From the IMG/VR virus record IMGVR_UViG_2671180547_000013: DNA of 47,489 nucleotides. One strand, given 5' to 3'. The DNA is from a virus. Taxonomy: Duplodnaviria > Heunggongvirae > Uroviricota > Caudoviricetes. The stretch's first letter is position 1. Every line of letters begins with the position of its first letter. Below are positions 20,528-34,422 of this stretch, piece by piece. Under the pieces are notes generated by a model. It saw only the letters and a program-made list of their open reading frames with translations. It ran no database searches and was not told the origin of the DNA. The translations under genes and the position numbers were made by a program.

Positions 20528-20664
20528 AATCTTAACTACAATATGATTCATTTTGATGATTGTTTCATAAGGAACAGTGAAGTAAGATCTAAGAGGAGTT
20601 AAATTTTATACAGTATAATCATAATATTGCAGCAAGGTGGTTATAATTGAAAGAATATTTAGAT

Positions 20665-22122
20665 ATGAATACATCTCATGTAAGAGTTGTTACTCATATG
20701 TGTGGGTTCCTGGTTTGGCTCTATAGTCTTTCAATGTTGCCACCAATGGTTGTAGCATTGTTTTATAAAGAAAAAAGCCTGTTCGTTTTCTTTATAACTT
20801 TCGTTATATTTTTTTGCATTGGTGGCGGAGCGTGGTATACAACTAAGAAATCTGGCATTCAATTACGTACCCGTGATGGGTTTATTATAATTGTAATGTT
20901 TTGGATTTTGTTTTCTGTTATTAGTGCATTCCCTTTATGGATTGACTCAGAACTTAATTTAACGTTCATTGATGCTCTGTTTGAAGGGGTTTCTGGAATA
21001 ACAACAACAGGAGCAACTGTAATTGATGATGTTAGTTCATTACCTCGGGCATATTTGTACTATCGGTCACAGTTAAATTTTATAGGTGGTTTAGGAGTTA
21101 TTGTTCTGGCGGTTGCAGTATTGCCATTATTGGGTATTGGTGGTGCAAAGCTTTATCAGTCAGAAATGCCGGGGCCATTTAAGGATGACAAACTCACTCC
21201 CCGCCTGGCCGATACGTCACGGACACTGTGGATAACTTATTCTTTATTAGGTATTGCTTGTATTGTCTGTTATAGACTTGCAGGAATGCCTTTGTTTGAT
21301 GCTATTTGTCACGGGATTTCCACAGTTTCGCTTGGTGGTTTCTCAACTCATAGCGAGAGTATCGGATATTTTAATAACTATTTGGTTGAGCTGGTGGCTG
21401 GTTCTTTTTCCCTGCTATCGGCTTTCAACTTCACTCTTTGGTATATTGTTATTAGCAGAAAAACGATAAAACCTTTAATCAGAGATATTGAACTTCGTTT
21501 CTTTCTGTTAATAGCCTTAGGGGTGATCATTGTTACCTCTTTCCAGGTCTGGCATATAGGTATGTATGACTTGCATGGAAGTTTTATTCATTCGTTTTTT
21601 CTTGCCAGCTCCATGCTCACTGATAATGGTTTAGCTACGCAGGATTATGCAAACTGGCCCACGCACACGATAGTGTTTTTGCTGTTGTCAAGTTTCTTTG
21701 GGGGATGTATAGGTTCAACCTGTGGTGGAATTAAGTCACTTCGATTTCTTATACTTTTCAAACAAAGCAAACACGAGATAAATCAGCTTTCTCATCCCAG
21801 AGCGTTGTTGAGTGTAAATGTAGGAGGGAAGATAGTTACAGATCGTGTAATGAGGTCTGTATGGAGTTTCTTTTTTCTTTATACTCTCTTCACGGTGTTT
21901 TTTATACTGGTGTTAAATGGTATGGGATATGATTTTCTTACATCATTTGCAACAGTGGCTGCATGTATTAATAATATGGGATTAGGTTTTGGGGCTACTG
22001 CATCGTCATTCGGAGTGCTTAATGACATTGCAAAATATTTAATGTGCATAGCTATGATTCTTGGTCGCCTTGAAATTTATCCTGTTATTATATTGTTTTC
22101 AGGTTTTTTTTGGCGCTCCTAA
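20665..22122 (+). CDS. trkG: TrkG potassium uptake membrane protein (moron)
   Basis: Start MNTSHVRVVTHMCGFLVWLYSLSML; polytopic membrane protein; low-GC gene after Rz as in Rac. Confidence 0.9.
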   Translation: MNTSHVRVVTHMCGFLVWLYSLSMLPPMVVALFYKEKSLFVFFITFVIFFCIGGGAWYTTKKSGIQLRTRDGFIIIVMFWILFSVISAFPLWIDSELNLTFIDALFEGVSGITTTGATVIDDVSSLPRAYLYYRSQLNFIGGLGVIVLAVAVLPLLGIGGAKLYQSEMPGPFKDDKLTPRLADTSRTLWITYSLLGIACIVCYRLAGMPLFDAICHGISTVSLGGFSTHSESIGYFNNYLVELVAGSFSLLSAFNFTLWYIVISRKTIKPLIRDIELRFFLLIALGVIIVTSFQVWHIGMYDLHGSFIHSFFLASSMLTDNGLATQDYANWPTHTIVFLLLSSFFGGCIGSTCGGIKSLRFLILFKQSKHEINQLSHPRALLSVNVGGKIVTDRVMRSVWSFFFLYTLFTVFFILVLNGMGYDFLTSFATVAACINNMGLGFGATASSFGVLNDIAKYLMCIAMILGRLEIYPVIILFSGFFWRS

Positions 22123-22259
22123 TATATGGCTGATTTATAATTGTGAGTTTAATATTATGTTGACTCACTCATTGATCCAATACCTAACTTTACCAGCAAC
22201 ACCTCCGCCCCCAGTAGCACTGGCTGCTGGGGTGCGTTTTATTCATAAAGCAAGGCTGT

Positions 22260-23048
22260 ATGAGCGAGAAATTAAAGATAGTCTATCGCCCATTACAAGA
22301 ATTGTCACCGTATGCGCACAACGCCAGGACGCACAGTACTGAGCAGGTGGCACAACTGGTAGAAAGTATTAAGCAATTCGGCTGGACTAATCCGGTGCTG
22401 ATTGACGAAAAGGGCGAAATTATTGCGGGTCACGGTCGTGTTATGGCGGCTGAAATGCTCAAAATGGATTCTGTTCCGGTCATTGTTCTGTCTGGCCTGA
22501 CGGATGAGCAGAAAAAGGCGTACCGCCTGGCAGATAATCGCCTGCCGATGAATGCTGGCTGGGATGAAGATCTGTTGCGGATGGAGCTGTCGGACCTAAT
22601 CAATGCTGATTTTGATGTCTCCCTGACAGGCTTCATCCCGGCAGAAATTGATGAACTGTTGACGGATGTTTTGCCCGGTACAGGAAATGAGGAGGAGCCG
22701 TATACGACGAAAATTGATACGCCTGTTTATGAGCCGTCAGGCGGTAAACCGGATATCAGTGAACTGTACGACGATACGAAAACTCAGGAGCTGATCAGCC
22801 GGATACGTTCGGCGTCCCTTGATCCTGATATTGAGAAATTCCTCCTGTGTGCAGCAGAACGTCACACGGTGTTTAATTTCAGCAGAATTGCGGACTATTA
22901 CGCTCATGCCCCCGCTGAAATTCAGTGCCTTTTCGAGGAGTCGGCGCTGGTGATCATTGATTATCAGCAGGCTATTGAAAATGGATTTGTCCGAATGACG
23001 CAGCGCATGGTGGAGATCATGCATGGCGGGGAGGAGGAATATGCGTGA
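22260..23048 (+). CDS. ynaK: ParB N-terminal (ParB/Srx-like nuclease) domain protein (YnaK-position, full length), 262 aa
   Basis: N-terminus LQELSPYAHNARTHS...GWTNPVLIDEKGEIIAGHGRVMAA typical of the ParB-N fold; AAGG Shine-Dalgarno. Confidence 0.7.
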   Translation: MSEKLKIVYRPLQELSPYAHNARTHSTEQVAQLVESIKQFGWTNPVLIDEKGEIIAGHGRVMAAEMLKMDSVPVIVLSGLTDEQKKAYRLADNRLPMNAGWDEDLLRMELSDLINADFDVSLTGFIPAEIDELLTDVLPGTGNEEEPYTTKIDTPVYEPSGGKPDISELYDDTKTQELISRIRSASLDPDIEKFLLCAAERHTVFNFSRIADYYAHAPAEIQCLFEESALVIIDYQQAIENGFVRMTQRMVEIMHGGEEEYA

Positions 23049-23973
23049 TGATTTTTGCGCCTTTATTCTGACTCACGGGCGACCGGACAAAGTTCTGACT
23101 TACCGGACGTTGCGTCGTGCTGGCTATACCGGGAAAATTTTTATCGTTGTTGATGATGAAGATAAGACACGGCATCAGTACATGGCTGAATTTGGTGAAC
23201 AGGTGCTGGTATTTTCCAAAGCCGATATTGCTAGTCGTTTTGACGAAGCCGATAATTTTAGTGACCGCCGCTCAATTTTTTACGCCCGTAATGCCTGTTT
23301 CGACCAGGCAAAACTGGTCGGGTGTAAATACTTCATTCAGCTCGATGATGATTATCACGAGTTCCAGTTTCGGGTGGATCGCAACTATGACCAGGCCTAT
23401 TTCCCGATAAGGAAACTGGATGAGATCCTTTCTGAAATGCTTGCGTACTACGAATCAATACCTGCTCTTTCCATCGCTATGTCGCAGGGCGGGGATTTTC
23501 TTGGTGACAATGGCGGCCATGCTTCGTGGGTGAAACGCAAGGCAATGAACAGCTTTATCTGTTCGGTTGATCGACCGTTCTCATTCATGGGGCGCATTAA
23601 CGAGGATGTGAATACGTACACGAATCTCGGTCGCTGTGGTGAATTGTTTATGACGATCGGTGCTGTCCAGTTAGGGCAGAAACAGACGCAGAAAAACAGC
23701 GGCGGAATGACCGAGCTGTATCTGGATTCCGGAACCTACGTTAAAAGTTTTTACTCCGTCATGTATGCGCCGTCGTGCGTAAAAATCTCACTTATGGGTG
23801 CCAGTCATAAACGCATTCACCATCAGGTCACCTGGAACAACGCTGCAGTAAAAATCCTTCACGAAAAATACAGGAAGAAGACACCCTGCATATCAATGGG
23901 GGTGACAAATGATTCCGTATTCGAAAGTCGAGTCTCTGGCAGCGTGCCGGATGACTGCACAACAAATCGCTGA
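23041..23973 (+). CDS. ydaY: Putative GT-A fold glycosyltransferase-like protein (YdaY-position), 310 aa
   Basis: ATG 23041 overlaps upstream stop (ATGCGTGA) with GGAGGAGG Shine-Dalgarno; AFILTHGRPD...KIFIVVDDEDKT and FIQLDDDYHEF resemble GT2 signatures (DxD); inferred from motifs. Confidence 0.5.
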   Translation: MRDDFCAFILTHGRPDKVLTYRTLRRAGYTGKIFIVVDDEDKTRHQYMAEFGEQVLVFSKADIASRFDEADNFSDRRSIFYARNACFDQAKLVGCKYFIQLDDDYHEFQFRVDRNYDQAYFPIRKLDEILSEMLAYYESIPALSIAMSQGGDFLGDNGGHASWVKRKAMNSFICSVDRPFSFMGRINEDVNTYTNLGRCGELFMTIGAVQLGQKQTQKNSGGMTELYLDSGTYVKSFYSVMYAPSCVKISLMGASHKRIHHQVTWNNAAVKILHEKYRKKTPCISMGVTNDSVFESRVSGSVPDDCTTNR

Positions 23974-24160
23974 CGTTCTGGATGTTGATCTGAACCGACT
24001 GAAAGAAAATCGGGAAGCAATGACAGATTTTTATGCGGCCATCCGTAAGGGCAGAGCGAAAGGTGAAGCCGAGTTACGAGCGGCATTGTTTAAGCTTGCC
24101 AGAAAAGGGGATGCCTTTGCTCTGCGCGAACTACTCAGGGTGGATAAAAATCAGGACTAA
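23909..24160 (+). CDS. Small helical DNA-binding-like protein preceding terminase small subunit, 83 aa
   Basis: ORF from track; GGGGG 6-7 nt upstream of ATG; overlaps the 3' end of the upstream gene by 65 nt. Confidence 0.4.
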   Translation: MIPYSKVESLAACRMTAQQIADVLDVDLNRLKENREAMTDFYAAIRKGRAKGEAELRAALFKLARKGDAFALRELLRVDKNQD

Positions 24161-24163
24161 CTG

Positions 24164-25258
24164 ATGAGCAGACCGGACTGGGGGGCGTTGCAGCAGGAGT
24201 ATATTGCTGAATACACCCGCTCCGGTATATCTCCGGTGGCATGGTGTGAAGCAAGGGGACTGAATTACGCAACAGCCCGTCGTTACATCAAAAAAACTCC
24301 GAAAAATGCGCAGACAGAAATGTGCAAAACTGCGCAAAAAAGTGCGCAGAAAAAATCTGCGCAGACTGCACAAAAGCGGAACGAAAAATCTCAGGAAAAA
24401 AAGCCAGTATTCGATGCGGGCCTGAATGAGGGCGACGCGGAGGAATTTTCGTTCTGTCCCGATGAATTCGGCATTTCTGACCAGCAGGCTAAGTTTGCGA
24501 TGCTTGTTGCTCAGGGTAAAAAGCCGACAGAGGCGTACCGACTAGCCGGTTATGAGGGGCAAGGTGCGACAGCTAACAGCAACGCCAGTCGTATGCTTAG
24601 AAATGCCAGGGTTTTTCGCGCTATCAGCTACTTCCGCAATCAGTACCAGAAACGCTATACCGCAGACCTGGATTTACTAGTGAGTCAGTTGATGGCTATT
24701 GTCCTGGCCGACCCCAATCAGCTTGCACAATTTCGCCGTGTTAACTGCCGTTATTGCTGGGGCGAGAATCATCTCTACCAGTGGCGCGATATAGCAGAAT
24801 TCGACAAGGCAGCGGCGCAGGCTTCCAGAGATGGCAAACCCGAACCGGAATATGGAGGCCTCGGCTTTGTTGATAACGCCATACCCAATCCGGACTGCCC
24901 GAAGTGCTGCGGTGAGGGAACGGGACAGCTTTATATGGCTGATACCACTCTGCTTGATGGGGATGCGCGGCAATTATATGCAGGGGCAAAATTCGGAAAA
25001 TTCGGCGTTGAGATCCTGCTGGAGGATAAGGCTGCCGCCCGGCGTGAATTGTTGCGTTTGTTTTCTGCTGGCGGGGCTTTATGTGCAGATAAGCGGCTAC
25101 GGGAACTGGAAATTGAACGGCGCAGAATGGAAAACCAGAAGCTGCGCAAAGAGATCGAAACGGTGGAAGATAATGAACATCCCCAGCCTGTGGCGATCAA
25201 TATTAATGTGGTTGATGCCAGAGTAAGGAGTGATGAAGATGATCTCTCCGACGCTTAA
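24164..25258 (+). CDS. Terminase small subunit (Terminase_2-like HTH) with Cys-rich insertion, 364 aa
   Basis: Segment DQQAKFAMLVAQGKKPTEAYRLAGYEGQGATANSNASRMLRNARV typical of small-terminase HTH; CRYCWGENH...CPKCCGEG zinc-ribbon-like; immediately upstream of large terminase. Confidence 0.7.
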   Translation: MSRPDWGALQQEYIAEYTRSGISPVAWCEARGLNYATARRYIKKTPKNAQTEMCKTAQKSAQKKSAQTAQKRNEKSQEKKPVFDAGLNEGDAEEFSFCPDEFGISDQQAKFAMLVAQGKKPTEAYRLAGYEGQGATANSNASRMLRNARVFRAISYFRNQYQKRYTADLDLLVSQLMAIVLADPNQLAQFRRVNCRYCWGENHLYQWRDIAEFDKAAAQASRDGKPEPEYGGLGFVDNAIPNPDCPKCCGEGTGQLYMADTTLLDGDARQLYAGAKFGKFGVEILLEDKAAARRELLRLFSAGGALCADKRLRELEIERRRMENQKLRKEIETVEDNEHPQPVAININVVDARVRSDEDDLSDA

Positions 25259-26540
25259 TGTGCCTCAGGCGCGATTTCTTTCAATGCCCCATAAATTTAA
25301 AGCCTATATTGCTGGTTTTGGCTCGGGCAAAACATGGGTTGGGTGTGGCGGCATATGCAAGGGGATTTGGGAGCATCCAGGTATAAATCAGGGATATTTT
25401 GCGCCAACGTATCCCCAAATTCGCGATATTTTTTACCCTACAGTGGAAGAAGTTGCTGCTGACTGGGGATTGAACGTAAAAATTAATGAGGGAAATAAAG
25501 AGGTTCACTTTTATTACGGACGCCAGTATCGGGGAACCACTATCTGCAGATCGATGGAGAAGCCACAAACGATCGTCGGTTTCAAAATTGGTAATGCGTT
25601 GGTGGATGAACTGGACATTTTGCCGAAGGAAAAAGCCAGAACGGCGTGGCGCAAGATAATTGCACGTATGCGTTATAAGATTGATGGACTTCGCAACGGT
25701 ATTGACGTTACAACCACGCCGGAAGGATTCAAATTTGTCTACGAGCAGTTTGTTAAAGCCGTGCGTGAAAAAACAGAGCTGGCCTCACTGTATGGTCTGG
25801 TGCAGGCATCTACTTTCGATAATGAAAAGAACCTGCCAGCAGATTACATTCCTTCGCTTCTTGAATCATACCCTCCAGAGCTGATTAAAGCCTATCTTCG
25901 AGGACAGTTTACTAACCTGACAAGTGGTACTGTTTACCATCAGTTTGACCGGAAACTGAATAATTGCGAAGAAGTGGAGCAGCCAGGGGAGCCGATTTAT
26001 ATTGGGATGGATTTTAACGTTGGAAAGATGGCGGGAATCGTCCATGTGCTGCGTTTGGGGCTTCCATGTGCGGTAACTGAAATCATCAATGCCTACGATA
26101 CGCCGGATATGATCCGCATCATTAAAGAACGCTTCTGGCTGTATGATGGGAATGATTACCGGAAAGTGAGGGAAATTTATATTTATCCAGATGCTTCCGG
26201 GGATTCCAGAAAATCAAGTAACGCAAGTACGACGGATATAGCCCAGCTTAAGCAGGCTGGTTTTAACGTTGTGGTGAACAGCTCGAACCCGCCAGTAAAA
26301 GATCGCGTTAACTCAATGAATGCAATGTTCTGCAATGCCAATGGTGAGCGTCGCTATAAAGTTAATGTGAAGCGTTGCCCGTTATATGCCGAATCTCTGG
26401 AGCAACAGGTCTGGGATGAGAAGGGGGAGCCTGATAAAAAATCTGGCAATGATCACCCGAATGATGCCGGAGGTTATTTCATCGTTAAGCAATTCCCTAT
26501 TGTCAAACCGACCGGAAGAGTCACATCACTTCGGATTTAA
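25239..26540 (+). CDS. Terminase large subunit (alternative starts GTG 25230 / ATG 25233)
   Basis: Walker A-like AGFGSGKTW; nuclease-type C-terminus; AAGGAG 8 nt upstream of ATG 25239. Confidence 0.85.
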   Translation: MISPTLNVPQARFLSMPHKFKAYIAGFGSGKTWVGCGGICKGIWEHPGINQGYFAPTYPQIRDIFYPTVEEVAADWGLNVKINEGNKEVHFYYGRQYRGTTICRSMEKPQTIVGFKIGNALVDELDILPKEKARTAWRKIIARMRYKIDGLRNGIDVTTTPEGFKFVYEQFVKAVREKTELASLYGLVQASTFDNEKNLPADYIPSLLESYPPELIKAYLRGQFTNLTSGTVYHQFDRKLNNCEEVEQPGEPIYIGMDFNVGKMAGIVHVLRLGLPCAVTEIINAYDTPDMIRIIKERFWLYDGNDYRKVREIYIYPDASGDSRKSSNASTTDIAQLKQAGFNVVVNSSNPPVKDRVNSMNAMFCNANGERRYKVNVKRCPLYAESLEQQVWDEKGEPDKKSGNDHPNDAGGYFIVKQFPIVKPTGRVTSLRI

Positions 26541-26542
26541 TT

Positions 26543-27949
26543 ATGGCTGATATATCAACACCCAACCTCGACTATAACGATATGCTGGAGGCGTGGGATA
26601 TTAACGACGCACTGATGGGCGGTACGCTTGAAATGCGCAGGCAGGGGGAAAATTATCTCCCAAAATGGCCTAACGAAGATGAAGACGCTTATAAAAAACG
26701 CCTGTCTGTGGCTACGCTACTTCCTGTGTATGAAGAAAGCATCAAGCAAAATATTGGGCGCATATTTGCAGAGCCGACAGTATTGAGTGAGGAAACGCCG
26801 GCAAAAATCAGGGAATATGCAGAAAATATCGACATGGAGGGGAGCCGACTGGATGTGTGGGCGCAGCAATTTTTCAGCCTCGCATTTCAGTATGGTGTGG
26901 CACATGCGCTGGTGGACTATCCACGAACGGATATGAAAGAGATTCGGACAAAAGCCGATGAAAACGCGACCGGTGGTCGTCCGTACGTTACGATGCTGAA
27001 TCCACGCCAGGTTATTGGATGGAAATCGAAAGTTGAAAAAGGGAAAGTTGTTCTCACTGATTTGCGTATAAAAGAGGTCATCATTATTGATGGTGATGAT
27101 TTCGGGCAGAAGAAGGTGGAGCAGATCCGCCATATTATGCCCCGTCGAGTTGAAATTTATCGACGTAGCGAAGGCACTAATGGCGAATCTGTCTGGACGC
27201 TTCATGAGTCATGGAATACCAGCCGTGATGATATTCCTCTGGTAACACTGTACACGAAGAAAACAGGATTTATGCGTGGTACACCGCCATTGCTTAATCT
27301 TGGCTTGCTGAATATCAAGCACTGGCAAAGCCAGAGCGAGCAGGACAATATTCTTCATGTTGCCCGCGTTCCATTGCTGGTGGCCTACGGGCTGGACAGG
27401 AATGAAGAACTGACGGTTGGTGCATCCACCGCTACGATTTTTGAGGACAGAACAAAAAATGGCCTCGAATATGTTGAACATAGTGGCGCAGCGATAGAAT
27501 CTGGCGAAACATCACTTGAGAAGCTGGAAAATCAGATGCGTCATGCCGGCGCTAAACTTCTGCGTGCTGAAAATACATCCACCAAATCTGTTGATCAGAC
27601 TAATGAAGAGCGAATGCAGGAAAACTCGCCGCTTTATACAATGGCGAACTCCCTCGAAGATGCCCTCGATAATATTCTCCAGATAATGGCGGAATGGATC
27701 GGAGAGAGTTGCGGTGGCAATGTGGATGTGCGCACTGAACTGGATGTATCTGCCCAGGTGTTTGACTCATCCTCCGCGCTGGCTGTTCAGTCATTGCGTC
27801 AGGGCGGTGATATACGTCAGATTGATGCGGTTCGGGTGTTGCAGGCGTTGAAATTTATCGATCAGGATTCCCGTCCAGAGGAAGTGATCGATGAATTAAA
27901 AAATCAGAGTGTAATGCTGATGGAAATCAATGATGCAAACCGTGAATGA
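26543..27949 (+). CDS. Portal protein, 468 aa
   Basis: Size and position directly after large terminase; acidic C-terminus. Confidence 0.75.
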   Translation: MADISTPNLDYNDMLEAWDINDALMGGTLEMRRQGENYLPKWPNEDEDAYKKRLSVATLLPVYEESIKQNIGRIFAEPTVLSEETPAKIREYAENIDMEGSRLDVWAQQFFSLAFQYGVAHALVDYPRTDMKEIRTKADENATGGRPYVTMLNPRQVIGWKSKVEKGKVVLTDLRIKEVIIIDGDDFGQKKVEQIRHIMPRRVEIYRRSEGTNGESVWTLHESWNTSRDDIPLVTLYTKKTGFMRGTPPLLNLGLLNIKHWQSQSEQDNILHVARVPLLVAYGLDRNEELTVGASTATIFEDRTKNGLEYVEHSGAAIESGETSLEKLENQMRHAGAKLLRAENTSTKSVDQTNEERMQENSPLYTMANSLEDALDNILQIMAEWIGESCGGNVDVRTELDVSAQVFDSSSALAVQSLRQGGDIRQIDAVRVLQALKFIDQDSRPEEVIDELKNQSVMLMEINDANRE

Positions 27950-29045
27950 ACGGCTGCGTGATGAATCAATTGCTCATGCAGTCTGGATATCCCGCTATAG
28001 CACTGGCGTGGCTGCCAGAATGGTGAAAATACTGAATGACAGCGATGCGGAACTTACTGCTCGCCTGCTGATAGCACTGGACAGCCTCGATCCAGGTAGT
28101 TTTACCGTTAAGCGCCTGGAGTCACTTCTGGCGAGCGTCAGAGAGGTTAACCGCACTGCTATTAACAGCATGTTTACCAGTCTCTCCGGAGAGCTGAACG
28201 AGCTGGCAATTTATGAGGCTGGTTATCAGTTAAGTCTGTTTGATTCTATGCTACCTGATTTTGTTGCTGATGTTCACCCTCTGGTTGGTATCTCTCCTGA
28301 TGCACTTTATGCCGCTGCAATGGCGCGACCATTCCAGGGACGACTGCTCAGTGAGTGGGCCTCAGATCTTGAGGCGGATCGGCTCAGACGCATAACAAAT
28401 ACAGTGCGTCAGGGTTTTTTGCTGGGGGATACCAATGAGCAGATCGCAAGAAAAATTCGGGGACATGTCAGTAAGGGATTTCAGGATGGTGCATTGCAGA
28501 TGAGCCGGGCTAATGCGGCCAGCATTGCAAAAACAGCGGTTGGACATCTTGCTGCTACTGCCCGTGAGAGTTTTGCCAGCGCGAATAATGATTTGATTAA
28601 GGGTAAGCAATGGTTATCAACGCTTGATAATCGTACTACGCCACAATGTCGAATCAGGGATCGCCTCAAATATACGCTGAATAATAAACCTGTAGGTCAC
28701 AGCGTGCCTTATTTGCAGGGGCCGGGAAAAATTCATTTCTGCTGCCGCTCAACGGAAACGTTCATTCTGAAATCAGCGAAGGAACTGGGTATTGATGTTC
28801 GCGATATTTCCCCGGCTGAGCGGGCCAGCATGGATGGCGTGGTGGCCGGAGATACAACCTACAGGGAATGGTTTTTGCGTCAGCCTTACACCAGACAAAA
28901 ACAGATTGTGGGGGAAAGCCGAGCAAAGCTGATTCGGGATGGTGGTATGTCGCCAGATGAATTTTACACCGATAAAGGCGAATGGCTGACGCTGAAGCAG
29001 CTCCGTGAGCGTGATGCACAGGTATTCAGAAAAGCAGGGATTTAA
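27930..29045 (+). CDS. Head morphogenesis protein (Mu F / SPP1 gp7-like minor capsid protein), 371 aa
   Basis: Position after portal; family assignment from recalled conserved segments. Confidence 0.6.
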   Translation: MMQTVNERLRDESIAHAVWISRYSTGVAARMVKILNDSDAELTARLLIALDSLDPGSFTVKRLESLLASVREVNRTAINSMFTSLSGELNELAIYEAGYQLSLFDSMLPDFVADVHPLVGISPDALYAAAMARPFQGRLLSEWASDLEADRLRRITNTVRQGFLLGDTNEQIARKIRGHVSKGFQDGALQMSRANAASIAKTAVGHLAATARESFASANNDLIKGKQWLSTLDNRTTPQCRIRDRLKYTLNNKPVGHSVPYLQGPGKIHFCCRSTETFILKSAKELGIDVRDISPAERASMDGVVAGDTTYREWFLRQPYTRQKQIVGESRAKLIRDGGMSPDEFYTDKGEWLTLKQLRERDAQVFRKAGI

Positions 29046-29064
29046 ATAAATCATTTATTACAAC

Positions 29065-29092
29065 AGGCTACCTTCGGGTGGCCTTTTTTATT
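29065..29092 (+). terminator. Intrinsic terminator-like hairpin with UUCG loop
   Basis: AGGCTACC-TTCG-GGTGGCCT (one G-U pair) followed by TTTTTTATT. Confidence 0.6.
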
Positions 29093-29149
29093 GCTGCGAT
29101 CCGGATGGTGAGCAGCGTAACTGTCGGAAGACTTAAACCAGGTACTAAT

Positions 29150-29914
29150 ATGAAACTGAAAACGGTCGAGATTAACGGAAAACAATACGCAGAAATTGAT
29201 ACTGCTGGCCTGCCAGTTTATGTGCACGACGATGGTAAAGAAATTGGCTTCGATGCACCGCTGGCGACAAAAAAAATTACAGAGCTTAATGGCGAGGCAA
29301 AAAATCATCGCCTGGCTAAAGAAGCTGCAGAGGAAAAACTGGCTAAGTTTGCCGCTATCGAAGACCCGAAGAAGGCGATCGAGGCACTGGAAATGCTGTC
29401 AAAAATCGACCAGAAAAAGCTGCTCGATGCGGGACAGGTTGACCAGGTTAAGGCAGAAATTACGAAAAATTTTCAGCAGCAATTAGATGAAGAAAAGCAA
29501 CGCTCTCAGATGCTGGAGAAGCAGCTTTACGATTCTATGATTGGCGGTAGTTTTGCGGGTTCAAAATATATTGCCGATAAAATTGCGATCCCGGCAGATT
29601 TATTACAAGCCCGCTTCGGGCAGGCATTCAAAGTGGAAGAAGGGAGGATCGTTGCTTATGACGCTTCCGGCAACAAAATTTATTCCCGCGCGAAGCCTGG
29701 CGAACTGGCGCAGTTTGATGAGGCGCTGGAGTTCCTTGTCGAAAATTACCCTCAGAAAGACTACATCCTGAAAGCCAGTGGCAACAATGGCGGCGGCTCC
29801 CGTCCGACACAGCATGATATTGGTCAGAAAACGATGAAACGCTCTGCTTTTGATGCACTGGATGTTGCAGGTAAGCAAAACGCATTGAAAGACGGTATCA
29901 CAATCGTTGATTAA
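29150..29914 (+). CDS. Scaffolding protein (start taken at ATG 29150, after the terminator)
   Basis: Helical, charged protein between head morphogenesis and major capsid genes. Confidence 0.6.
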   Translation: MKLKTVEINGKQYAEIDTAGLPVYVHDDGKEIGFDAPLATKKITELNGEAKNHRLAKEAAEEKLAKFAAIEDPKKAIEALEMLSKIDQKKLLDAGQVDQVKAEITKNFQQQLDEEKQRSQMLEKQLYDSMIGGSFAGSKYIADKIAIPADLLQARFGQAFKVEEGRIVAYDASGNKIYSRAKPGELAQFDEALEFLVENYPQKDYILKASGNNGGGSRPTQHDIGQKTMKRSAFDALDVAGKQNALKDGITIVD

Positions 29915-30012
29915 CACATTTGTCAGCTTCCGGATGGGAGCTGGTGTCAGGGCTGGATAGCTCATTACTCCATCTATTCACAATTACGCAAATTTTTAAG
30001 GAATATTTAATT

Positions 30013-31152
30013 ATGGCTGGAAATACCCTGACCGGGTTGATCCCGACTATTTATACCGCCCTGGATGTTGTATCCCGTGAGCAGGTAGGTTTTATCCCTG
30101 CGGTAGCAAAAAACGCAAAAGCTGACGCCGCAGCAAAAGATCAGACGGTAACCGCGCCAGTTGCGCCTGAGGCGAAAACCGAAGATATCGTACCGGGGCC
30201 GTCAGCTCCGAATACCGGTGATCAAAATATTGGCACTGTTGATGTAAAAATTACTAAATCCAAAATGGCACCGGTTAAATGGAATGGTGAAGAACAACTG
30301 GCTCTTGGCCCTTCAGGGACTTACAACACCATTCTGGCTGATCAGTTCAAGCAGGCTTTTCGCGCCCTTGCAAACGAGGTTGAGGCTGATCTTGGTGCGT
30401 TGTATTTCGGTGCTTCCCGCGCCGTGGGAACCGCAGGGACAACGCCGTTTGGTGTTAAAGATGATCTTTCTGATGCTGCTCTGGCTCGTCAGGTTCTGGA
30501 GGATAACGGCGCACCGACAACCGATCTGCAGATGGTGCTTGGCTCCACTGCCATTGCTAATTTGCGCGGAAAACAGTCTGTATTGTTTAAAGTGAATGAA
30601 TCCGGCACTGAACAGCTACTGCGTGAGGGCGTGTTGGGGCGTCTGGAGGGATTCAATATTCACAGTTCGGCAGGTGTGAAACGAGCGCCAAAGGTTGCTG
30701 CAACTGGTTATCTCGTGAATGGAGAGAAAAAAGAAGGCGATGTTCTTATTTCCATTGATACTGGTTCGGGGAGTATTTCTGCAGGTCAGATTGTTACGTT
30801 CGCTGGTGATCCGAATCAGTATGTTGTGGCAGCAGCGACCAGCAATCTGATTACTCTTGCAGCGCCCGGACTGCGTCAGGATCTGGCCGATGATACTGCC
30901 ATCACAGTTGTTGGGGCCTTTACTGCAAATATGGCGTTTGATCGCAACGCGTTTCTGCTGGCATCCCGTACTCCGGCAATGCCGGAAGGTGGCGATAATG
31001 CTGATGATGTAATGAATGTTACGGACCCGATTTCAGGGATTACGTTCCAGATTGCACTGTATCGTCAGTATCGCCAGGTGCGCTATGAAGTTGGACTGGC
31101 ATGGGGTGTTTCATCAGTGAAGCCGGCACATGGTTGTCTGATTCTTGGTTAA
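30013..31152 (+). CDS. Major capsid protein, 379 aa
   Basis: ATG 30013 with AAGGAA upstream; size and position; strong hairpin terminator immediately downstream. Confidence 0.75.
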   Translation: MAGNTLTGLIPTIYTALDVVSREQVGFIPAVAKNAKADAAAKDQTVTAPVAPEAKTEDIVPGPSAPNTGDQNIGTVDVKITKSKMAPVKWNGEEQLALGPSGTYNTILADQFKQAFRALANEVEADLGALYFGASRAVGTAGTTPFGVKDDLSDAALARQVLEDNGAPTTDLQMVLGSTAIANLRGKQSVLFKVNESGTEQLLREGVLGRLEGFNIHSSAGVKRAPKVAATGYLVNGEKKEGDVLISIDTGSGSISAGQIVTFAGDPNQYVVAAATSNLITLAAPGLRQDLADDTAITVVGAFTANMAFDRNAFLLASRTPAMPEGGDNADDVMNVTDPISGITFQIALYRQYRQVRYEVGLAWGVSSVKPAHGCLILG

Positions 31153-31162
31153 ACATTCAAAC

Positions 31163-31183
31163 GGGGCTTCGGCCCCATTTTTA
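31163..31183 (+). terminator. Intrinsic terminator-like hairpin with UUCG loop after major capsid gene
   Basis: GGGGC-TTCG-GCCCC followed by ATTTTTA. Confidence 0.65.
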
Positions 31184-31194
31184 ATGGGGGGCAT

Positions 31195-31371
31195 ATGGCC
31201 GGATTAACTAAAGAGCAAAGAGCACAGCGTGAAGCCGCACAAAAAACGCAAATTGAGTTAGTGGTTATGGTGACCGATTATCAGATGTTTCCCGGCGCAC
31301 CAACTATCGCTAATGTTCATCCTGATGAAGTTGACAACTGGAAGGCTATGGGCTGGAAAACTCAGGAGTAA
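31195..31371 (+). CDS. Small hypothetical protein, 58 aa
   Basis: Hand-found ORF MAGLTKEQRAQREAAQKTQIELVVMVTDYQMFPGAPTIANVHPDEVDNWKAMGWKTQE; G-rich Shine-Dalgarno; fills the gap between capsid and connector genes. Confidence 0.35.
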   Translation: MAGLTKEQRAQREAAQKTQIELVVMVTDYQMFPGAPTIANVHPDEVDNWKAMGWKTQE

Positions 31372-31374
31372 CAC

Positions 31375-31770
31375 ATGATCACTTACGTGACCTGTGATGA
31401 CGTTGATAATGCGTTTGGGAACGCCTGGACGAGTGAGAACGCTAAAAATAAAGCTGTTTTAATGGCTAATGCCTGGCTTAATGGCTTCAACCTGAAAATT
31501 AACCCATCCCGTATTCCGGAAGAGGTAAAACTTGCGGGAGCATATGCAGCCAGAATTGCCTCATTCGGTAAGTTGTTTCAGCAGAAAAATGATTCTGGCG
31601 TTGTTATCAGTAAAGCCGTGTCGGCTGACGGGGTCAGTGTATCGAAATCATTTTCTGAGTTGCCAGCAAACAGCACTGCATTGCTTGAACCCGATTTACA
31701 GCTTGCGATAGCACTGCTGAAACCGTACGGACTTAGTCGCTCACAAGTCAGGGTTGTGAGGGGGGGATAA
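31375..31770 (+). CDS. Head-tail connector/adaptor protein, 131 aa
   Basis: Position and size in head-to-tail joining block; GGAG Shine-Dalgarno. Confidence 0.55.
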   Translation: MITYVTCDDVDNAFGNAWTSENAKNKAVLMANAWLNGFNLKINPSRIPEEVKLAGAYAARIASFGKLFQQKNDSGVVISKAVSADGVSVSKSFSELPANSTALLEPDLQLAIALLKPYGLSRSQVRVVRGG

Positions 31771-32153
31771 TGGGGCTTCGTGAAGAGATTCAGTCAGAGG
31801 TTGCCGCTGCTTTTGATGAGGATTTAGCGGACGCCGTGAGTGATTTTTCTGGTTCTTACGTTACGCACCGGCACTGGGATCCTGTGACGGAAACTGGCGG
31901 CGAATCAACCGCAATCTATACCGGGCGAGGCGTGTTGACACGTTATAAGCTGGGCAGAATTGATGGGATTAATATTTTGCATGGTGACCTTAAATTAACC
32001 GCTCTGGTATGCGAGGTTACGGATAAACCAGCTGTCGACCATATTATTGAGATTTATGATCCTGTATCAAGGCAGTTACAACGATACGAGGTAATTACAG
32101 CAAGTGTAGATCCTTCCGCATCAGTTTACTCTATCCAGTTAAGGAGAGCGTAA
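31770..32153 (+). CDS. Head closure / head-tail joining protein, 127 aa
   Basis: Overlapping start with upstream gene; position. Confidence 0.5.
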   Translation: MGLREEIQSEVAAAFDEDLADAVSDFSGSYVTHRHWDPVTETGGESTAIYTGRGVLTRYKLGRIDGINILHGDLKLTALVCEVTDKPAVDHIIEIYDPVSRQLQRYEVITASVDPSASVYSIQLRRA

Positions 32154-32534
32154 ATGGCAAAGGCATGGGATATAGAACCGTCAATATTTGCCGGGATGAT
32201 TGAGGAAGATGTAGGGCTGAAGATTCGCTACATCGCTATGCAGATTCTTACTGCTATTGATATTGCTGCTCCGGTTGATACCGGACGTTTCAGAAATAAC
32301 AACCTGGTGTCGTTACAGCATCCCGATTTTGGTATATCTGATAACGTGGATCCGAACGGTACGATTGCTGTTCAGCGTGGGATCGGGGTTATTTCGAAAG
32401 CTGCAAATTACGGGGTTATTTATATCCAGAATAACCTTCCTTATGCAGAGGCTCTTGAAAACGGTCATTCACAACAAGCGCCAACTGGCGTGTATGCCAA
32501 CGCTTTTCATGGTGTTTTACAGGCTTACAAATGA
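32154..32534 (+). CDS. Tail completion / neck protein (HK97 gp10-like), 126 aa
   Basis: Position; AAGGAGAG Shine-Dalgarno. Confidence 0.5.
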   Translation: MAKAWDIEPSIFAGMIEEDVGLKIRYIAMQILTAIDIAAPVDTGRFRNNNLVSLQHPDFGISDNVDPNGTIAVQRGIGVISKAANYGVIYIQNNLPYAEALENGHSQQAPTGVYANAFHGVLQAYK

Positions 32535-32923
32535 AGTTTACTGAAATCAGAAATACGGTTATTTCCAGAATGACGGCACAGACGATTATTGATGGAAAAG
32601 ACGTATTGTATCCGAACGGGCCAACGTTCGATCCTTCCGGTAAGTTAATCTGGGCGCGGTTAAGTAATATTCCCGGGCAGGCTGGAGTTAATGAAATTGG
32701 CGCGGGGCCGGTTGTTTATCGCACGGGGATAATCATTATTCAGTTATTTGTCCCCGCAGGTTCTGGTTCAAAACTCATTACTGAGACAGCCGATAAATTG
32801 CGGGAACTGTTTGAGTTTCAGGATGACGATCGTCTCAGTTACCAGGCTGTTTCCTCAATAGCCGTTGGCGAAAAGAATGGCTGGTTCCAGCTTAATCTTC
32901 AAATTCCATATCGCGCGCTCTAG
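32531..32923 (+). CDS. Tail terminator-like protein, 130 aa
   Basis: ATGA overlap with upstream gene; directly precedes major tail protein. Confidence 0.5.
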   Translation: MKFTEIRNTVISRMTAQTIIDGKDVLYPNGPTFDPSGKLIWARLSNIPGQAGVNEIGAGPVVYRTGIIIIQLFVPAGSGSKLITETADKLRELFEFQDDDRLSYQAVSSIAVGEKNGWFQLNLQIPYRAL

Positions 32924-32949
32924 CGCAATTAATGACATAGGAGGCTCCT

Positions 32950-33912
32950 GTGAGTTCAGGTGCAAAGGTTATCTCGGCATTTATCCGGGAGACGGTTGCA
33001 GGCACTACGCCAGCAAGTGGTGACTGGAGTTTATTAAAACGCACAAGCTGGGGAGTAAAACCCACCCAGAATAAAGGCGAAAATAATGAGATTGGTGGCT
33101 CCCGGATGGCTCAGGGGGCGACGCCTGGCACTGTGGATGTCGGCGGTGATGTTGGTACCAAATTTCGCTGGGGTCAACATGATGATTTTCTTGCATCCTG
33201 TTTCGGCGCGGAATGGTCAGGCGATTCTCTGACAATGGGGAATGAGCGAATAACATTTTCTCTGGCGACCTATGCGTCCGATGTCGGAATTGCCTCTGTC
33301 GTCAGAGGAGCGCAGGTTGGCTCATGGAAAATGCAGATCCCTAACGACGGCGATATTACAGCGACCGTAACCTTTGCCGGACTGGACTGGGAATCAAAGG
33401 CCGATGATACGAATTTTATCAAAGGCGAACCTGTGGATAGTGCAGGAAAGCTACGTTATTCGTTTAAGGAGGTTTCAGCAGTAAGCCTGAATGGTGTTGC
33501 CGGAGGTAACGGTTTTTGTATCGACAGTTTTGATATTCAGTTCGATAACAAACTCCAGACACAGCGTTGTATCGGGACTGGCTCGCCTTATGCAGGAGCA
33601 AATATTCCGACTACTTTTACACCGTCCGGTACGGTGACGCTTTCATGGTCTAAAGCCGCGTGGGAAATCTGGAGTAAAACACTGACTGGAGAAACAGTTC
33701 CGTTCAGCTTCACGCTTTCGAATGGAGAGGGGGCATACACTTTCAGTTTCCCGAAGGTTCAGGTGTCAGGTGAATGGCCTGATGGGGGTAATAGCGACAT
33801 TATCCAGGTTCAATTGAGCATTACCGCAGCAGATGAAGCACCTACGATAACCAGAAAAAAAAATTCCCCGGCTGCCGTGATCGCAAAAGCCAGTGCTGAG
33901 GCGATTAGTTGA
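32950..33912 (+). CDS. Major tail (tube) protein, 320 aa (GTG start)
   Basis: AGGAGG 5 nt upstream; Gly/Thr/Ser-rich protein before the chaperone and tape-measure genes. Confidence 0.7.
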   Translation: MSSGAKVISAFIRETVAGTTPASGDWSLLKRTSWGVKPTQNKGENNEIGGSRMAQGATPGTVDVGGDVGTKFRWGQHDDFLASCFGAEWSGDSLTMGNERITFSLATYASDVGIASVVRGAQVGSWKMQIPNDGDITATVTFAGLDWESKADDTNFIKGEPVDSAGKLRYSFKEVSAVSLNGVAGGNGFCIDSFDIQFDNKLQTQRCIGTGSPYAGANIPTTFTPSGTVTLSWSKAAWEIWSKTLTGETVPFSFTLSNGEGAYTFSFPKVQVSGEWPDGGNSDIIQVQLSITAADEAPTITRKKNSPAAVIAKASAEAIS

Positions 33913-33960
33913 TTTTCCGTTATTCCTCCTGTGGTACTGCCCTACAGGGGGACGCATTGA

Positions 33961-34422
33961 ATGAGGTTATGGATGTTTATTCTTAATCAGAAAATTATCA
34001 TTGGTGGAGAACGCTGGTTTACGCCAATGAAGGACTTAAAACCTGTAGACGGGTTAAAACTGTTGGTGGCAAGCAGCGATAACGATCAGTATCGCTCCCG
34101 TAATGCATTAATCCGTCGCCACATTGAGAAAATGGATGCCAGTTTGCACGTCGGAACGAAGGAGTTTGATATTTCAAAGGTTTCCGAGGTGGATTCTGTT
34201 GATGATTTACTCATTGATAATGCCGCTCGTTATCTGCTGAAAGACTGGAAAGGGGTTGGTGAACTGGTTAATGGTGTTGAGGTTGCACTGGAATATACGG
34301 CAGAACGAGGGATCGCGCTGCTTAAGCAGAATCCAGAGTTGTACTGGCAGATCCTTGCAGAAGCAGCCAGCATCGCCCAGGGTAAAGAGCAGCAGAAGCA
34401 GGATACGATAAAAAAGCCATAG
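33961..34422 (+). CDS. Tail assembly chaperone (lambda gpG analogue), 153 aa
   Basis: Acidic protein directly upstream of the tape-measure gene; ends ...DTIKKP with slippery heptamer in its last codons. Confidence 0.7.
   Translation: MRLWMFILNQKIIIGGERWFTPMKDLKPVDGLKLLVASSDNDQYRSRNALIRRHIEKMDASLHVGTKEFDISKVSEVDSVDDLLIDNAARYLLKDWKGVGELVNGVEVALEYTAERGIALLKQNPELYWQILAEAASIAQGKEQQKQDTIKKP

Follow-up and report, generated by a model that had tools for sequence, protein, structure and literature searches.

Gene content of the locus

The DNA analysed here (the window) is a stretch of 47,489 nucleotides (nt) held as IMG/VR virus record IMGVR_UViG_2671180547_000013, and it is a Rac-type lambdoid prophage of Escherichia coli. 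Our subject is a pair of adjacent genes at positions 22260 to 23973 of this window: open reading frame (ORF) A, which encodes a ParB-like protein, and ORF B, which encodes a glycosyltransferase of the TAGT (TET-associated glycosyltransferase) family. The gene order runs from the lysis genes through trkG, ORF A, ORF B and a small ORF to the genes for the terminase small subunit (TerS), the terminase large subunit (TerL), the portal and the capsid. The parts of the pair are listed below in window coordinates, with predicted local distance difference test (pLDDT) values of the AlphaFold2 (AF2) model where they apply. The PGAP annotation used throughout is that of RefSeq strain EC2.

22260-23048, plus strand: ORF A, ParB-like gene (full-length YnaK), 262 amino acids (aa), an intact ORF with its TGA stop at 23046-23048
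22260-22667, plus strand: aa 1-136 of ORF A, ParB/Srx nucleotide-binding fold and two helices, pLDDT about 77-91
22668-22769, plus strand: aa 137-170 of ORF A, acidic linker, predicted disordered, pLDDT <50
22770-23045, plus strand: aa 171-262 of ORF A, helical C-terminal domain (CTD), the constant partner of TAGT
23030-23037, plus strand: Shine-Dalgarno sequence GGAGGAGG for the TAGT gene, within the acidic C-terminal codons of the ParB-like gene
23041-23048, plus strand: stop/start overlap ATGCGTGA, 8 nt, with the ORF B ATG at 23041-23043 and the ORF A TGA at 23046-23048
23041-23973, plus strand: ORF B, TAGT-family GT-A glycosyltransferase, 310 aa, PGAP name 'GREB1-related protein'

An earlier note on this DNA, made from its letters without database searches, had described a ParB-N domain protein whose stop codon overlaps the start of a putative GT-A glycosyltransferase gene with a Shine-Dalgarno sequence of its own, both ahead of the terminase genes, and had doubted that the first protein serves in partition. 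The overlap and the Shine-Dalgarno sequence are present at the positions listed, and the ATGCGTGA overlap is consistent with translational coupling of ORF A and ORF B. Many of the homologous loci, though not all, have a purine-rich stretch of the GAGG type before the TAGT start. A mechanical ORF list had placed the ORF B start at 23023; this was dropped for the ATG at 23041, because all 32 aligned homologues begin at MRDDF.

The two genes form an obligate pair

To describe the neighbourhood of ORF B homologues, 160 loci were collected by TAGT similarity from viral contigs and from a set of genomes with one per species, giving 78 lineages at 85% identity. The sample consists of the closest relatives of the ORF B clade, with at least 44% identity save for one Porphyromonas outlier, and the statistics reported here apply to that clade, not to the TAGT family at large. 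In all 52 lineages with at least 4 kb of flanking sequence, TAGT is accompanied by a ParB-like or CTD gene, which in 51 is its immediate upstream neighbour; any other gene family is found in 11 of these loci at most. The reverse search, starting from the CTD, found TAGT directly downstream in 73 of 80 loci and slightly further downstream in 6, and one contig ends too early; TAGT is thus present downstream in 79/79 CTD loci with enough sequence. The ParB-like/CTD gene and TAGT are an obligate pair and constitute one unit. Furthermore, the end of the ParB-like gene and the start of TAGT share nucleotides in 70 of 74 lineages, the overlap being 8 nt long in 28 of them and 11 nt long in 31, and the recurrence of this arrangement in such diverged lineages means that it is not due to chance.

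The pair was found in Enterobacterales, Bacteroidota, Firmicutes (Veillonella, Clostridia, Lactobacillus), Kiritimatiellia, Acidobacteriota, Ignavibacteria and Saccharibacteria. Cultured viruses that carry it include phages of Lactobacillus delbrueckii and L. gasseri, Nocardia phage NTR1, 191-kb Vibrio phages and Porphyromonas phages, and it also occurs in the haloarchaeal virus HHTV-2, at 43% identity. Virulent phages as well as prophages are represented. Of 5426 complete E. coli genomes, 1610 contain a match to the stretch 22100-24200 of the window; the match covers at least 80% of this stretch in 867 genomes, and the identity is 100% in several. Ten induced-phage records also match it, at about 98.7% identity.

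ORF B is a member of the TAGT glycosyltransferase family

The product of ORF B matches the Pfam family TAGT (PF20691) over aa 8-222 with an E-value of 3.7e-34 and 118.9 bits, against a cutoff of 27.5, and falls in PHROG 842 (7.5e-104). A word-indexed search for its relatives returned at least 8000 significant matches. The glycosyltransferase signatures that the earlier note had picked out by eye are all present, namely ILTHGRPD (aa 9-16), IVVDDED (aa 35-41) and DDD (aa 102-104, nt 23344-23352). In an alignment of 33 sequences reaching down to 58% identity, R14, D38, D41, D102-D103-D104, E188-D189 and H260-H261 are invariant, so that ORF B carries the R...DDD...ED pattern of the DNA-modifying GT-A enzymes (bioRxiv 10.1101/2023.12.21.572611).

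The structural evidence points the same way. The AF2 model of ORF B has a pLDDT of 73.7 and a predicted TM-score (pTM) of 0.74. Its top matches in a Foldseek search of the PDB are all GT-A enzymes (SpsA, GnT-I, glycogenin and COLGALT1; probability 0.99-1.0), and its top matches in BFVD are TAGT-domain proteins (E 4.7e-21, TM 0.66/0.73). The GT-A fold, on which the earlier note had let its proposal depend, is thus supported by the Pfam match, the model and the structural search alike, and the DxD motif is invariant. By sequence, ORF B is clearly an ordinary member of the known TAGT family. Proteins of this clade are basic, with a median isoelectric point (pI) of 8.8 over the 78 lineages. For both genes of the pair, the proportion of nonsynonymous differences (pN) is 0.13-0.25 and that of synonymous differences (pS) 0.70-0.86, the synonymous sites being saturated; with so few nonsynonymous differences beside saturated synonymous sites, both genes are therefore under purifying selection.

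ORF A is a ParB-like protein with a conserved linker motif and a C-terminal domain of its own

ORF A matches Pfam ParB_N (PF02195) with an E-value of 8.7e-7 and 29.3 bits (cutoff 26.3), and PHROG 620 over its full length (1.7e-90). Foldseek aligns its model with the CTP-binding domains of Noc, ParB, KorB and PadC and with Srx at probability 1.0, the comparison with ParB-type CTP-binding domains covering 142 aligned columns at a root-mean-square deviation of 3.3 Å. Both the ParB-N assignment of the earlier note and a ParB/Srx fold are borne out by these results. Phage ParB-methyltransferase fusions begin with a module homologous to the N-terminal region of ORF A, aa 1-136 (phrog_498, 6e-51; PADLOC MTase_II, 1.5e-38). 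This region of ORF A contains the conserved residues N21, H25 and D92-N93 and, as Box II, a GHGR sequence (aa 57-60) in which G57, G59 and R60 are invariant; the phosphate-binding arginine is retained, and the arginine of Box I (R23) is not universal.

The linker that follows holds the motif PYTxKIxxPxYEPS (aa 147-160, nt 22698-22739), whose residues Y148, T149, K151, P155, Y157 and P159 are invariant in the aligned homologues despite the predicted disorder. In the CTD, R201, H202, Y214, E226, S228 and D234 are invariant. A full-library search for this domain yielded 1192 clusters at 50% identity, always in C-terminal position. The domain matches no Pfam family and has no sequence relative in the PDB. 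ORF A taken by itself is under purifying selection as well (pN 0.20-0.25 vs pS 0.70-0.79). Among the longer CTD-containing proteins, which we considered as possible natural fusions of ParB and TAGT, the additional domain is only ParB_N, and such fusions were rejected. As an observation in its own right, the acidity of the ParB-like protein is unexpected for a protein that handles DNA; it recalls DNA-mimic proteins, or a charge-complementary partner of the basic TAGT.

The doubt cast earlier on a partition function proved well placed. ORF A scores 38.1 bits against the partition-ParB model TIGR00180, below the cutoff of 58.45, and PGAP annotates no ParA in the prophage. Because it has no helix-turn-helix (HTH), no ParA and a score below the NCBIfam cutoff, ORF A is not a canonical partition ParB, and a partition function is not supported.

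Genomic context and variants of the pair

In the window the pair stands directly ahead of the packaging genes, in the place that the earlier note had given it. The genes that follow are:

23909-24160, plus strand: small ORF, 83 aa (69 aa if from 23951), phrog_309 (8.3e-23), overlapping the 3' end of TAGT
24164-25258, plus strand: TerS (Pfam Terminase_2/6N/6C matches for the terminase pair, PGAP)
25230-26540, plus strand: TerL (Pfam Terminase_2/6N/6C matches for the terminase pair, PGAP)
from 26543: portal, directly after TerL

The small ORF resembles part of a terminase small subunit and occupies position +1 in 11 enterobacterial loci. Since it precedes a TerS of 364 aa, the small terminase function may be split over two genes. 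We also observed that the C-terminal tail of the E. coli TAGT is about 22 aa longer than that of most homologues (about 288 aa), and that this tail overlaps the 83-aa ORF. The GC content of the ORF A/B pair (0.48-0.51) is like that of the terminase genes and unlike that of the low-GC trkG moron (0.33-0.41).

Similar surroundings are found elsewhere. At 43 loci, the first large gene downstream of the pair is mostly a terminase large subunit of one of four Pfam types, or a portal gene; the family matches, some of which overlap, are Terminase_6N in 19, Terminase_3 in 10, GpA in 5, TerL_ATPase in 1 and portal in 5. C5-methyltransferases occur at 7 of the 52 flanked loci, and further sugar-nucleotide genes (epimerase, NTP transferases) at some.

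Two departures from this layout were observed. In several phages, the protein encoded upstream of TAGT has 128-160 aa and consists of the motif and the CTD only (loci L117, 9607-10858, and L165, 5459-6888; also L115, L134, L148 and L164), with the PYTxKIxxPxYEPS motif retained. These CTD-only pairs sit in the replication module rather than ahead of the terminase: at L117 the pair lies between DNA polymerase A and a DnaN-like clamp, and in Vibrio phage pv27 it lies among primase, exonuclease and helicase genes. Because some phages retain the motif and the CTD only, these two elements are what TAGT is constantly paired with, and the ParB nucleotide-binding domain can be lost and is thus an accessory; the CTD together with the short linear motif is likely the interaction core of the pair. 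A separate 'partition protein' is also present in phage pv27 (L252, 21653-22615), encoded some 11 kb upstream of its TAGT gene.

In the second variant, a gene for a histidine phosphatase/cytidylyltransferase-like fusion is inserted between the partner gene and TAGT, which is the case in 5 of the 6 non-adjacent loci (L229, 2942-3895; also L234, L237, L239 and L244). The TAGT proteins of these five loci have EDD for DDD and NDD for NED, and the combination of altered residues with the inserted gene hints at a different activated donor.

The K-12 remnant and its effect on annotation

The earlier note had named ynaK and ydaY as truncated K-12 remnants of this pair, which holds for the first gene and fails for the second. 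Homology between the Rac prophage of K-12 and the window ends at 22513 and resumes at 34071 (L167, 3130). The intervening K-12 deletion, 22514-34070 (11.6 kb), takes out TAGT along with the genes for terminase, portal and capsid and the majority of the tail genes, and joins ynaK at about codon 85 to ydaY. Since the K-12 homology stops at 22513, ynaK (87 aa) is the 5' stump of ORF A. As a remnant of TAGT, ydaY was rejected: it is an unrelated gene that maps to the tail region, near window position 34071, and was juxtaposed by the deletion.

PGAP labels the intact 262-codon ORF A of strain EC2 as an incomplete ynaK pseudogene and annotates its first 86 codons only (L001, 20161-20418). This label is probably an artefact of the use of the truncated K-12 YnaK as reference protein. 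Many genomes likewise list 'ynaK: ParB/Srx family N-terminal domain-containing protein'. Our literature search found no functional work on ynaK.

A candidate DNA glycosyltransferase module

We propose, with a probability of roughly 0.45, that the pair is a ParB-activated, late-expressed DNA glycosyltransferase module that would act on phage DNA. Its catalytic part would be a metal-dependent (DxD) GT-A glycosyltransferase with a nucleotide-activated sugar as donor. Through the overlapping stop and start codons, synthesis of the ParB-like protein would keep pace with that of the enzyme, in fixed proportion, and the ParB-like protein would probably bind TAGT through the Tyr/Pro motif and the CTD. 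Lying immediately before the terminase genes, the module would be transcribed as part of the late operon, and the complex would then act on replicated double-stranded phage DNA (dsDNA) before or during packaging. In this process the ParB-like protein might enable the enzyme to work on duplex DNA, possibly serving as an adaptor or clamp gated by NTP, and a protective (anti-restriction) effect might follow.

Several observations favour this proposal. Among them are the TAGT membership of ORF B with its intact active site, the obligate and overlapping pairing across bacterial phyla and in an archaeal virus, and the N-terminal module of ORF A, which has a ParB-CTPase fold and is also found fused to phage DNA methyltransferases. 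The context of the pair is always DNA-related, whether terminase and portal or polymerase, clamp, primase and helicase. Sugar-nucleotide genes accompany it at some loci, TAGT is basic, the GC content resembles that of the terminase genes, and both genes are under purifying selection. Among its relatives, the second glucosyltransferase of T2 and T6 (beta-glucosyl-HMC alpha-glucosyltransferase, where HMC is hydroxymethylcytosine) is a TAGT member that acts on DNA (PMC13390438), as are the kinetoplastid base-J glucosyltransferase (JGT) and the phage GT-A enzymes associated with 5-methylpyrimidine dioxygenases (5mYOX; bioRxiv 10.1101/2023.12.21.572611). For the partner, O'Toole et al. (PNAS 2026) reported that a subclass of thymine dioxygenases requires a phage ParB-like protein for its action on dsDNA (PMC13229309), and Burke et al. 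cite a proposal by Aravind in which ParB guides modification enzymes in the course of packaging (PMC8256090).

The considerations that weigh against the proposal concern first the acceptor. Known DNA glycosyltransferases require 5-hydroxymethylcytosine (5hmC), 5-hydroxymethyluracil (5hmU), 5-hydroxycytosine or a sugar already on one of these, and to our knowledge unmodified E. coli DNA has no hydroxyl acceptor of the type that they use. Neither a TET/JBP or 5mYOX dioxygenase nor a hydroxymethylating thymidylate-synthase homologue was found in the window, by the PGAP table and by Pfam searches of the unannotated ORFs. The same enzymes are absent from the neighbours scanned by Pfam annotation of four contigs, and no dioxygenase or hydroxymethylase family recurs among 150 neighbour ORFs. 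Pfam likewise finds none in the genes between the C5-methyltransferases and the pair at other loci; these dioxygenase searches were Pfam-based, and very divergent dioxygenases could escape them. A thymidylate-synthase homologue of Vibrio phage pv27 was considered as a hydroxymethylase and rejected, as it scores as a true thymidylate synthase (about 100 of 191 kb inspected). Pyle et al. rate glycosyltransferases without a nearby 5mYOX or ThyS gene as 'less likely' DNA hypermodifiers, and about 65% of their glycosyltransferase-bearing contigs are without either gene nearby (bioRxiv 10.1101/2023.12.21.572611).

The partner protein raises difficulties of the same sign. The catalytic glutamate of the ParB GERR box is replaced by His58 in ORF A, and the CTD is modelled by AF2 with low confidence, too uncertain for a fold search. 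ORF A is very acidic in all three of its parts, with a pI of 4.5 and a net charge of about -24 (homologue median -27), and it has no DNA-binding domain, the Pfam search finding no HTH.

Alternative explanations

The possibility that TAGT moves its sugar to a serine, threonine or tyrosine of a protein appears unlikely to us, yet it is the main rival of our proposal and a serious one. The most economical acceptor would be the partner itself, through Y148, T149 and Y157 of its linker; alternatively, a packaging or host protein would be modified, with the ParB-like protein as adaptor. That the enzyme and the motif-CTD protein are the only strictly conserved parts suggests a self-contained system without a hydroxylase, and an invariant motif within a region predicted to be disordered would suit an acceptor site, although a docking peptide explains the conserved linear motif equally well. 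The family member GREB1 O-GlcNAcylates a protein (PMC7968844), which speaks for a protein acceptor and at the same time against one in DNA. The fold neighbours of ORF B include GT-A enzymes that glycosylate tyrosine or threonine, such as glycogenin, and the partner is acidic and without a DNA-binding domain. However, the characterised viral and protist TAGT members all act on DNA, the ParB N-terminal module occurs elsewhere in fusions with DNA methyltransferases, and the gene pair adjoins terminase or polymerase/clamp genes, not capsid or tail genes. DNA modification and protein glycosylation, the two functions that the earlier note had placed side by side, are both compatible with the sequence.

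Another nucleic acid or nucleotide might serve as acceptor, an explanation that we hold to be improbable. The candidates would be modified bases of RNA or tRNA, a nucleotide signal of host defence, or the 5hmC or 5hmU DNA of a superinfecting phage, in which case the pair would be a prophage-encoded exclusion system. Such acceptors would agree with the lack of an encoded acceptor-generating enzyme, with the ability of the ParB fold to bind CTP, ATP or GTP depending on the family (PMC12704722), and with the many prophages that carry the pair, as in the 1610 matching E. coli genomes. Against this explanation stand the occurrence of the module in virulent phages and in an archaeal virus and its place in a late or replication operon with phage-like GC content, unlike that of a moron with its own signals. 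Moreover, PADLOC returns no defence-system match for TAGT, and no positive evidence for a specific alternative acceptor emerged.

Equally doubtful is the notion that the pair is a self-sufficient system in which the sugar would be placed directly onto duplex DNA, at a canonical base, at a DNA end or on the backbone, without methylation or hydroxylation beforehand.

Finally, it is very improbable that the two genes are unrelated neighbours, a partition protein or packaging nuclease beside a surface-remodelling glycosyltransferase of lysogenic conversion, for although depositors label ORF A 'chromosome (plasmid) partitioning protein' and Pyle et al. speculate about an origin of phage GT-A enzymes among the enzymes with which prophages remodel the cell surface, such as TarP (bioRxiv 10.1101/2023.12.21.572611), this explanation is close to refuted by the pairing in 52/52 and 79/79 loci with a conserved gene overlap, and it sits poorly with a partner that has no HTH, no ParA and a partition score below the cutoff, and with hosts of entirely different envelopes (Gram-positives, Bacteroidota, haloarchaea).

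Other features of the prophage

Immediately upstream of the pair, trkG (window 20647-22232) is a low-GC insert between the lysis genes and the ParB-like gene, its flanks having a GC content of about 0.49. A terminator-like hairpin is located at 22209-22232, after trkG and 27 nt before the ATG of ORF A. Just upstream of the lysis cassette lies a phage-encoded ORF with a TolA C-terminal domain (18128-18556; Pfam TolA, E 2.4e-23), where PGAP gives a partial tolA fragment at about 18296-18556.

Further upstream, two adjacent ORFs at 11774-12865 (363 aa) and 12881-13882 (333 aa) are unannotated, the second being frameshifted in EC2 according to PGAP. They show a weak HEPN/RES N-terminal domain (E 2e-4) and a weak GNAT match (E 9e-4), PADLOC finds no match for them, and they may be accessory or defence cargo of the prophage. 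An IS1 insertion and some pseudogenes are annotated in strain EC2, and not all of these are present in the window.

Significance of the pair

Phage DNA glycosylation has so far been seen as a process of two steps, in which a pyrimidine is hydroxylated and a sugar is then added, and the clade described here carries the second step only. Either the acceptor is new, or TAGT proteins widely serve phages in a function that does not involve DNA. The pair would extend the principle of ParB as an enzyme activator, described in 2026 for dioxygenases only, to a second enzyme class. If direct glycosylation without hydroxylation were true, it would be a new DNA-modification chemistry, present in about one sixth of complete E. 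coli genomes and in viruses of many phyla and of haloarchaea. As the system comprises only two genes, which are intact in many E. coli strains, it is directly testable in E. coli. The analysis also exposes an annotation problem, in that intact ParB-like genes are called pseudogenes owing to the truncated ynaK of K-12.

Comparison with known systems

No paper describing a ParB/CTD-TAGT module without a hydroxylase was found in our literature search, and the 2025 survey of the ParB-CTPase fold makes no mention of glycosyltransferases (PMC12704722). The nearest parallel is 5mYOX176 with its partner ParB176 (PMC13229309). Compared by described layout, the partner protein of both systems consists of a nucleotide-binding domain, a helical segment, a long disordered linker and a CTD, has no DNA-binding domain, and is encoded beside the enzyme, which in 5mYOX176 is a post-replicative DNA-modifying one; 5mYOX clusters, too, are often near terminase genes. 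In contrast, the enzyme here is a glycosyltransferase and no dioxygenase is present. Moreover, 5mYOX176 needed both ParB domains, whereas some of the phages studied here retain only the motif and the CTD.

With the TAGT DNA glycosyltransferases (those associated with 5mYOX, those of T2 and T6, and that of base J), ORF B shares the PF20691 domain, the GT-A fold and the R...DDD...ED pattern, and the genes are phage-encoded. The acceptors of those enzymes are 5hmC, 5hmU or a sugar attached to 5hmC, for which a TET/JBP dioxygenase or a hydroxymethylase is the source, whereas the ORF B clade is without such a supplier and has an obligate ParB-like/CTD partner. The glycosyltransferase neighbours recorded by Pyle et al. 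include ParB-like, terminase, polymerase and clamp genes (bioRxiv 10.1101/2023.12.21.572611).

Fusions of ParB-N to methyltransferases often lie upstream of the terminase small subunit. Those represented by phrog_498 and PADLOC MTase_II carry an N-terminal ParB module homologous to that of ORF A and are also encoded by phages and prophages; the survey reports ParB-methyltransferase fusions to be strongly enriched in prophage regions (PMC12704722). They differ in that an N6 or N4 methyltransferase is covalently joined to this module, while in ORF A a linker and the CTD follow it and the glycosyltransferase is a separate product that appears to be translationally coupled.

GREB1 (PMC7968844) has a homologous glycosyltransferase domain, but it is a 1949-aa animal cytoplasmic protein that O-GlcNAcylates the oestrogen receptor, with no ParB partner and no viral context. 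The canonical ParB proteins (Spo0J/ParB/KorB/Noc) share with ORF A the CTP-binding fold over the first ~140 residues (Foldseek probability 1.0), whereas ORF A lacks the HTH/parS-binding domain, has GHGR for GERR and ends in another C-terminal domain. Set against these systems, what is new in the ORF A/B architecture is the absence of an acceptor-generating enzyme, the obligate ParB-like/CTD partner and the conservation of the pair across bacteria and archaea.

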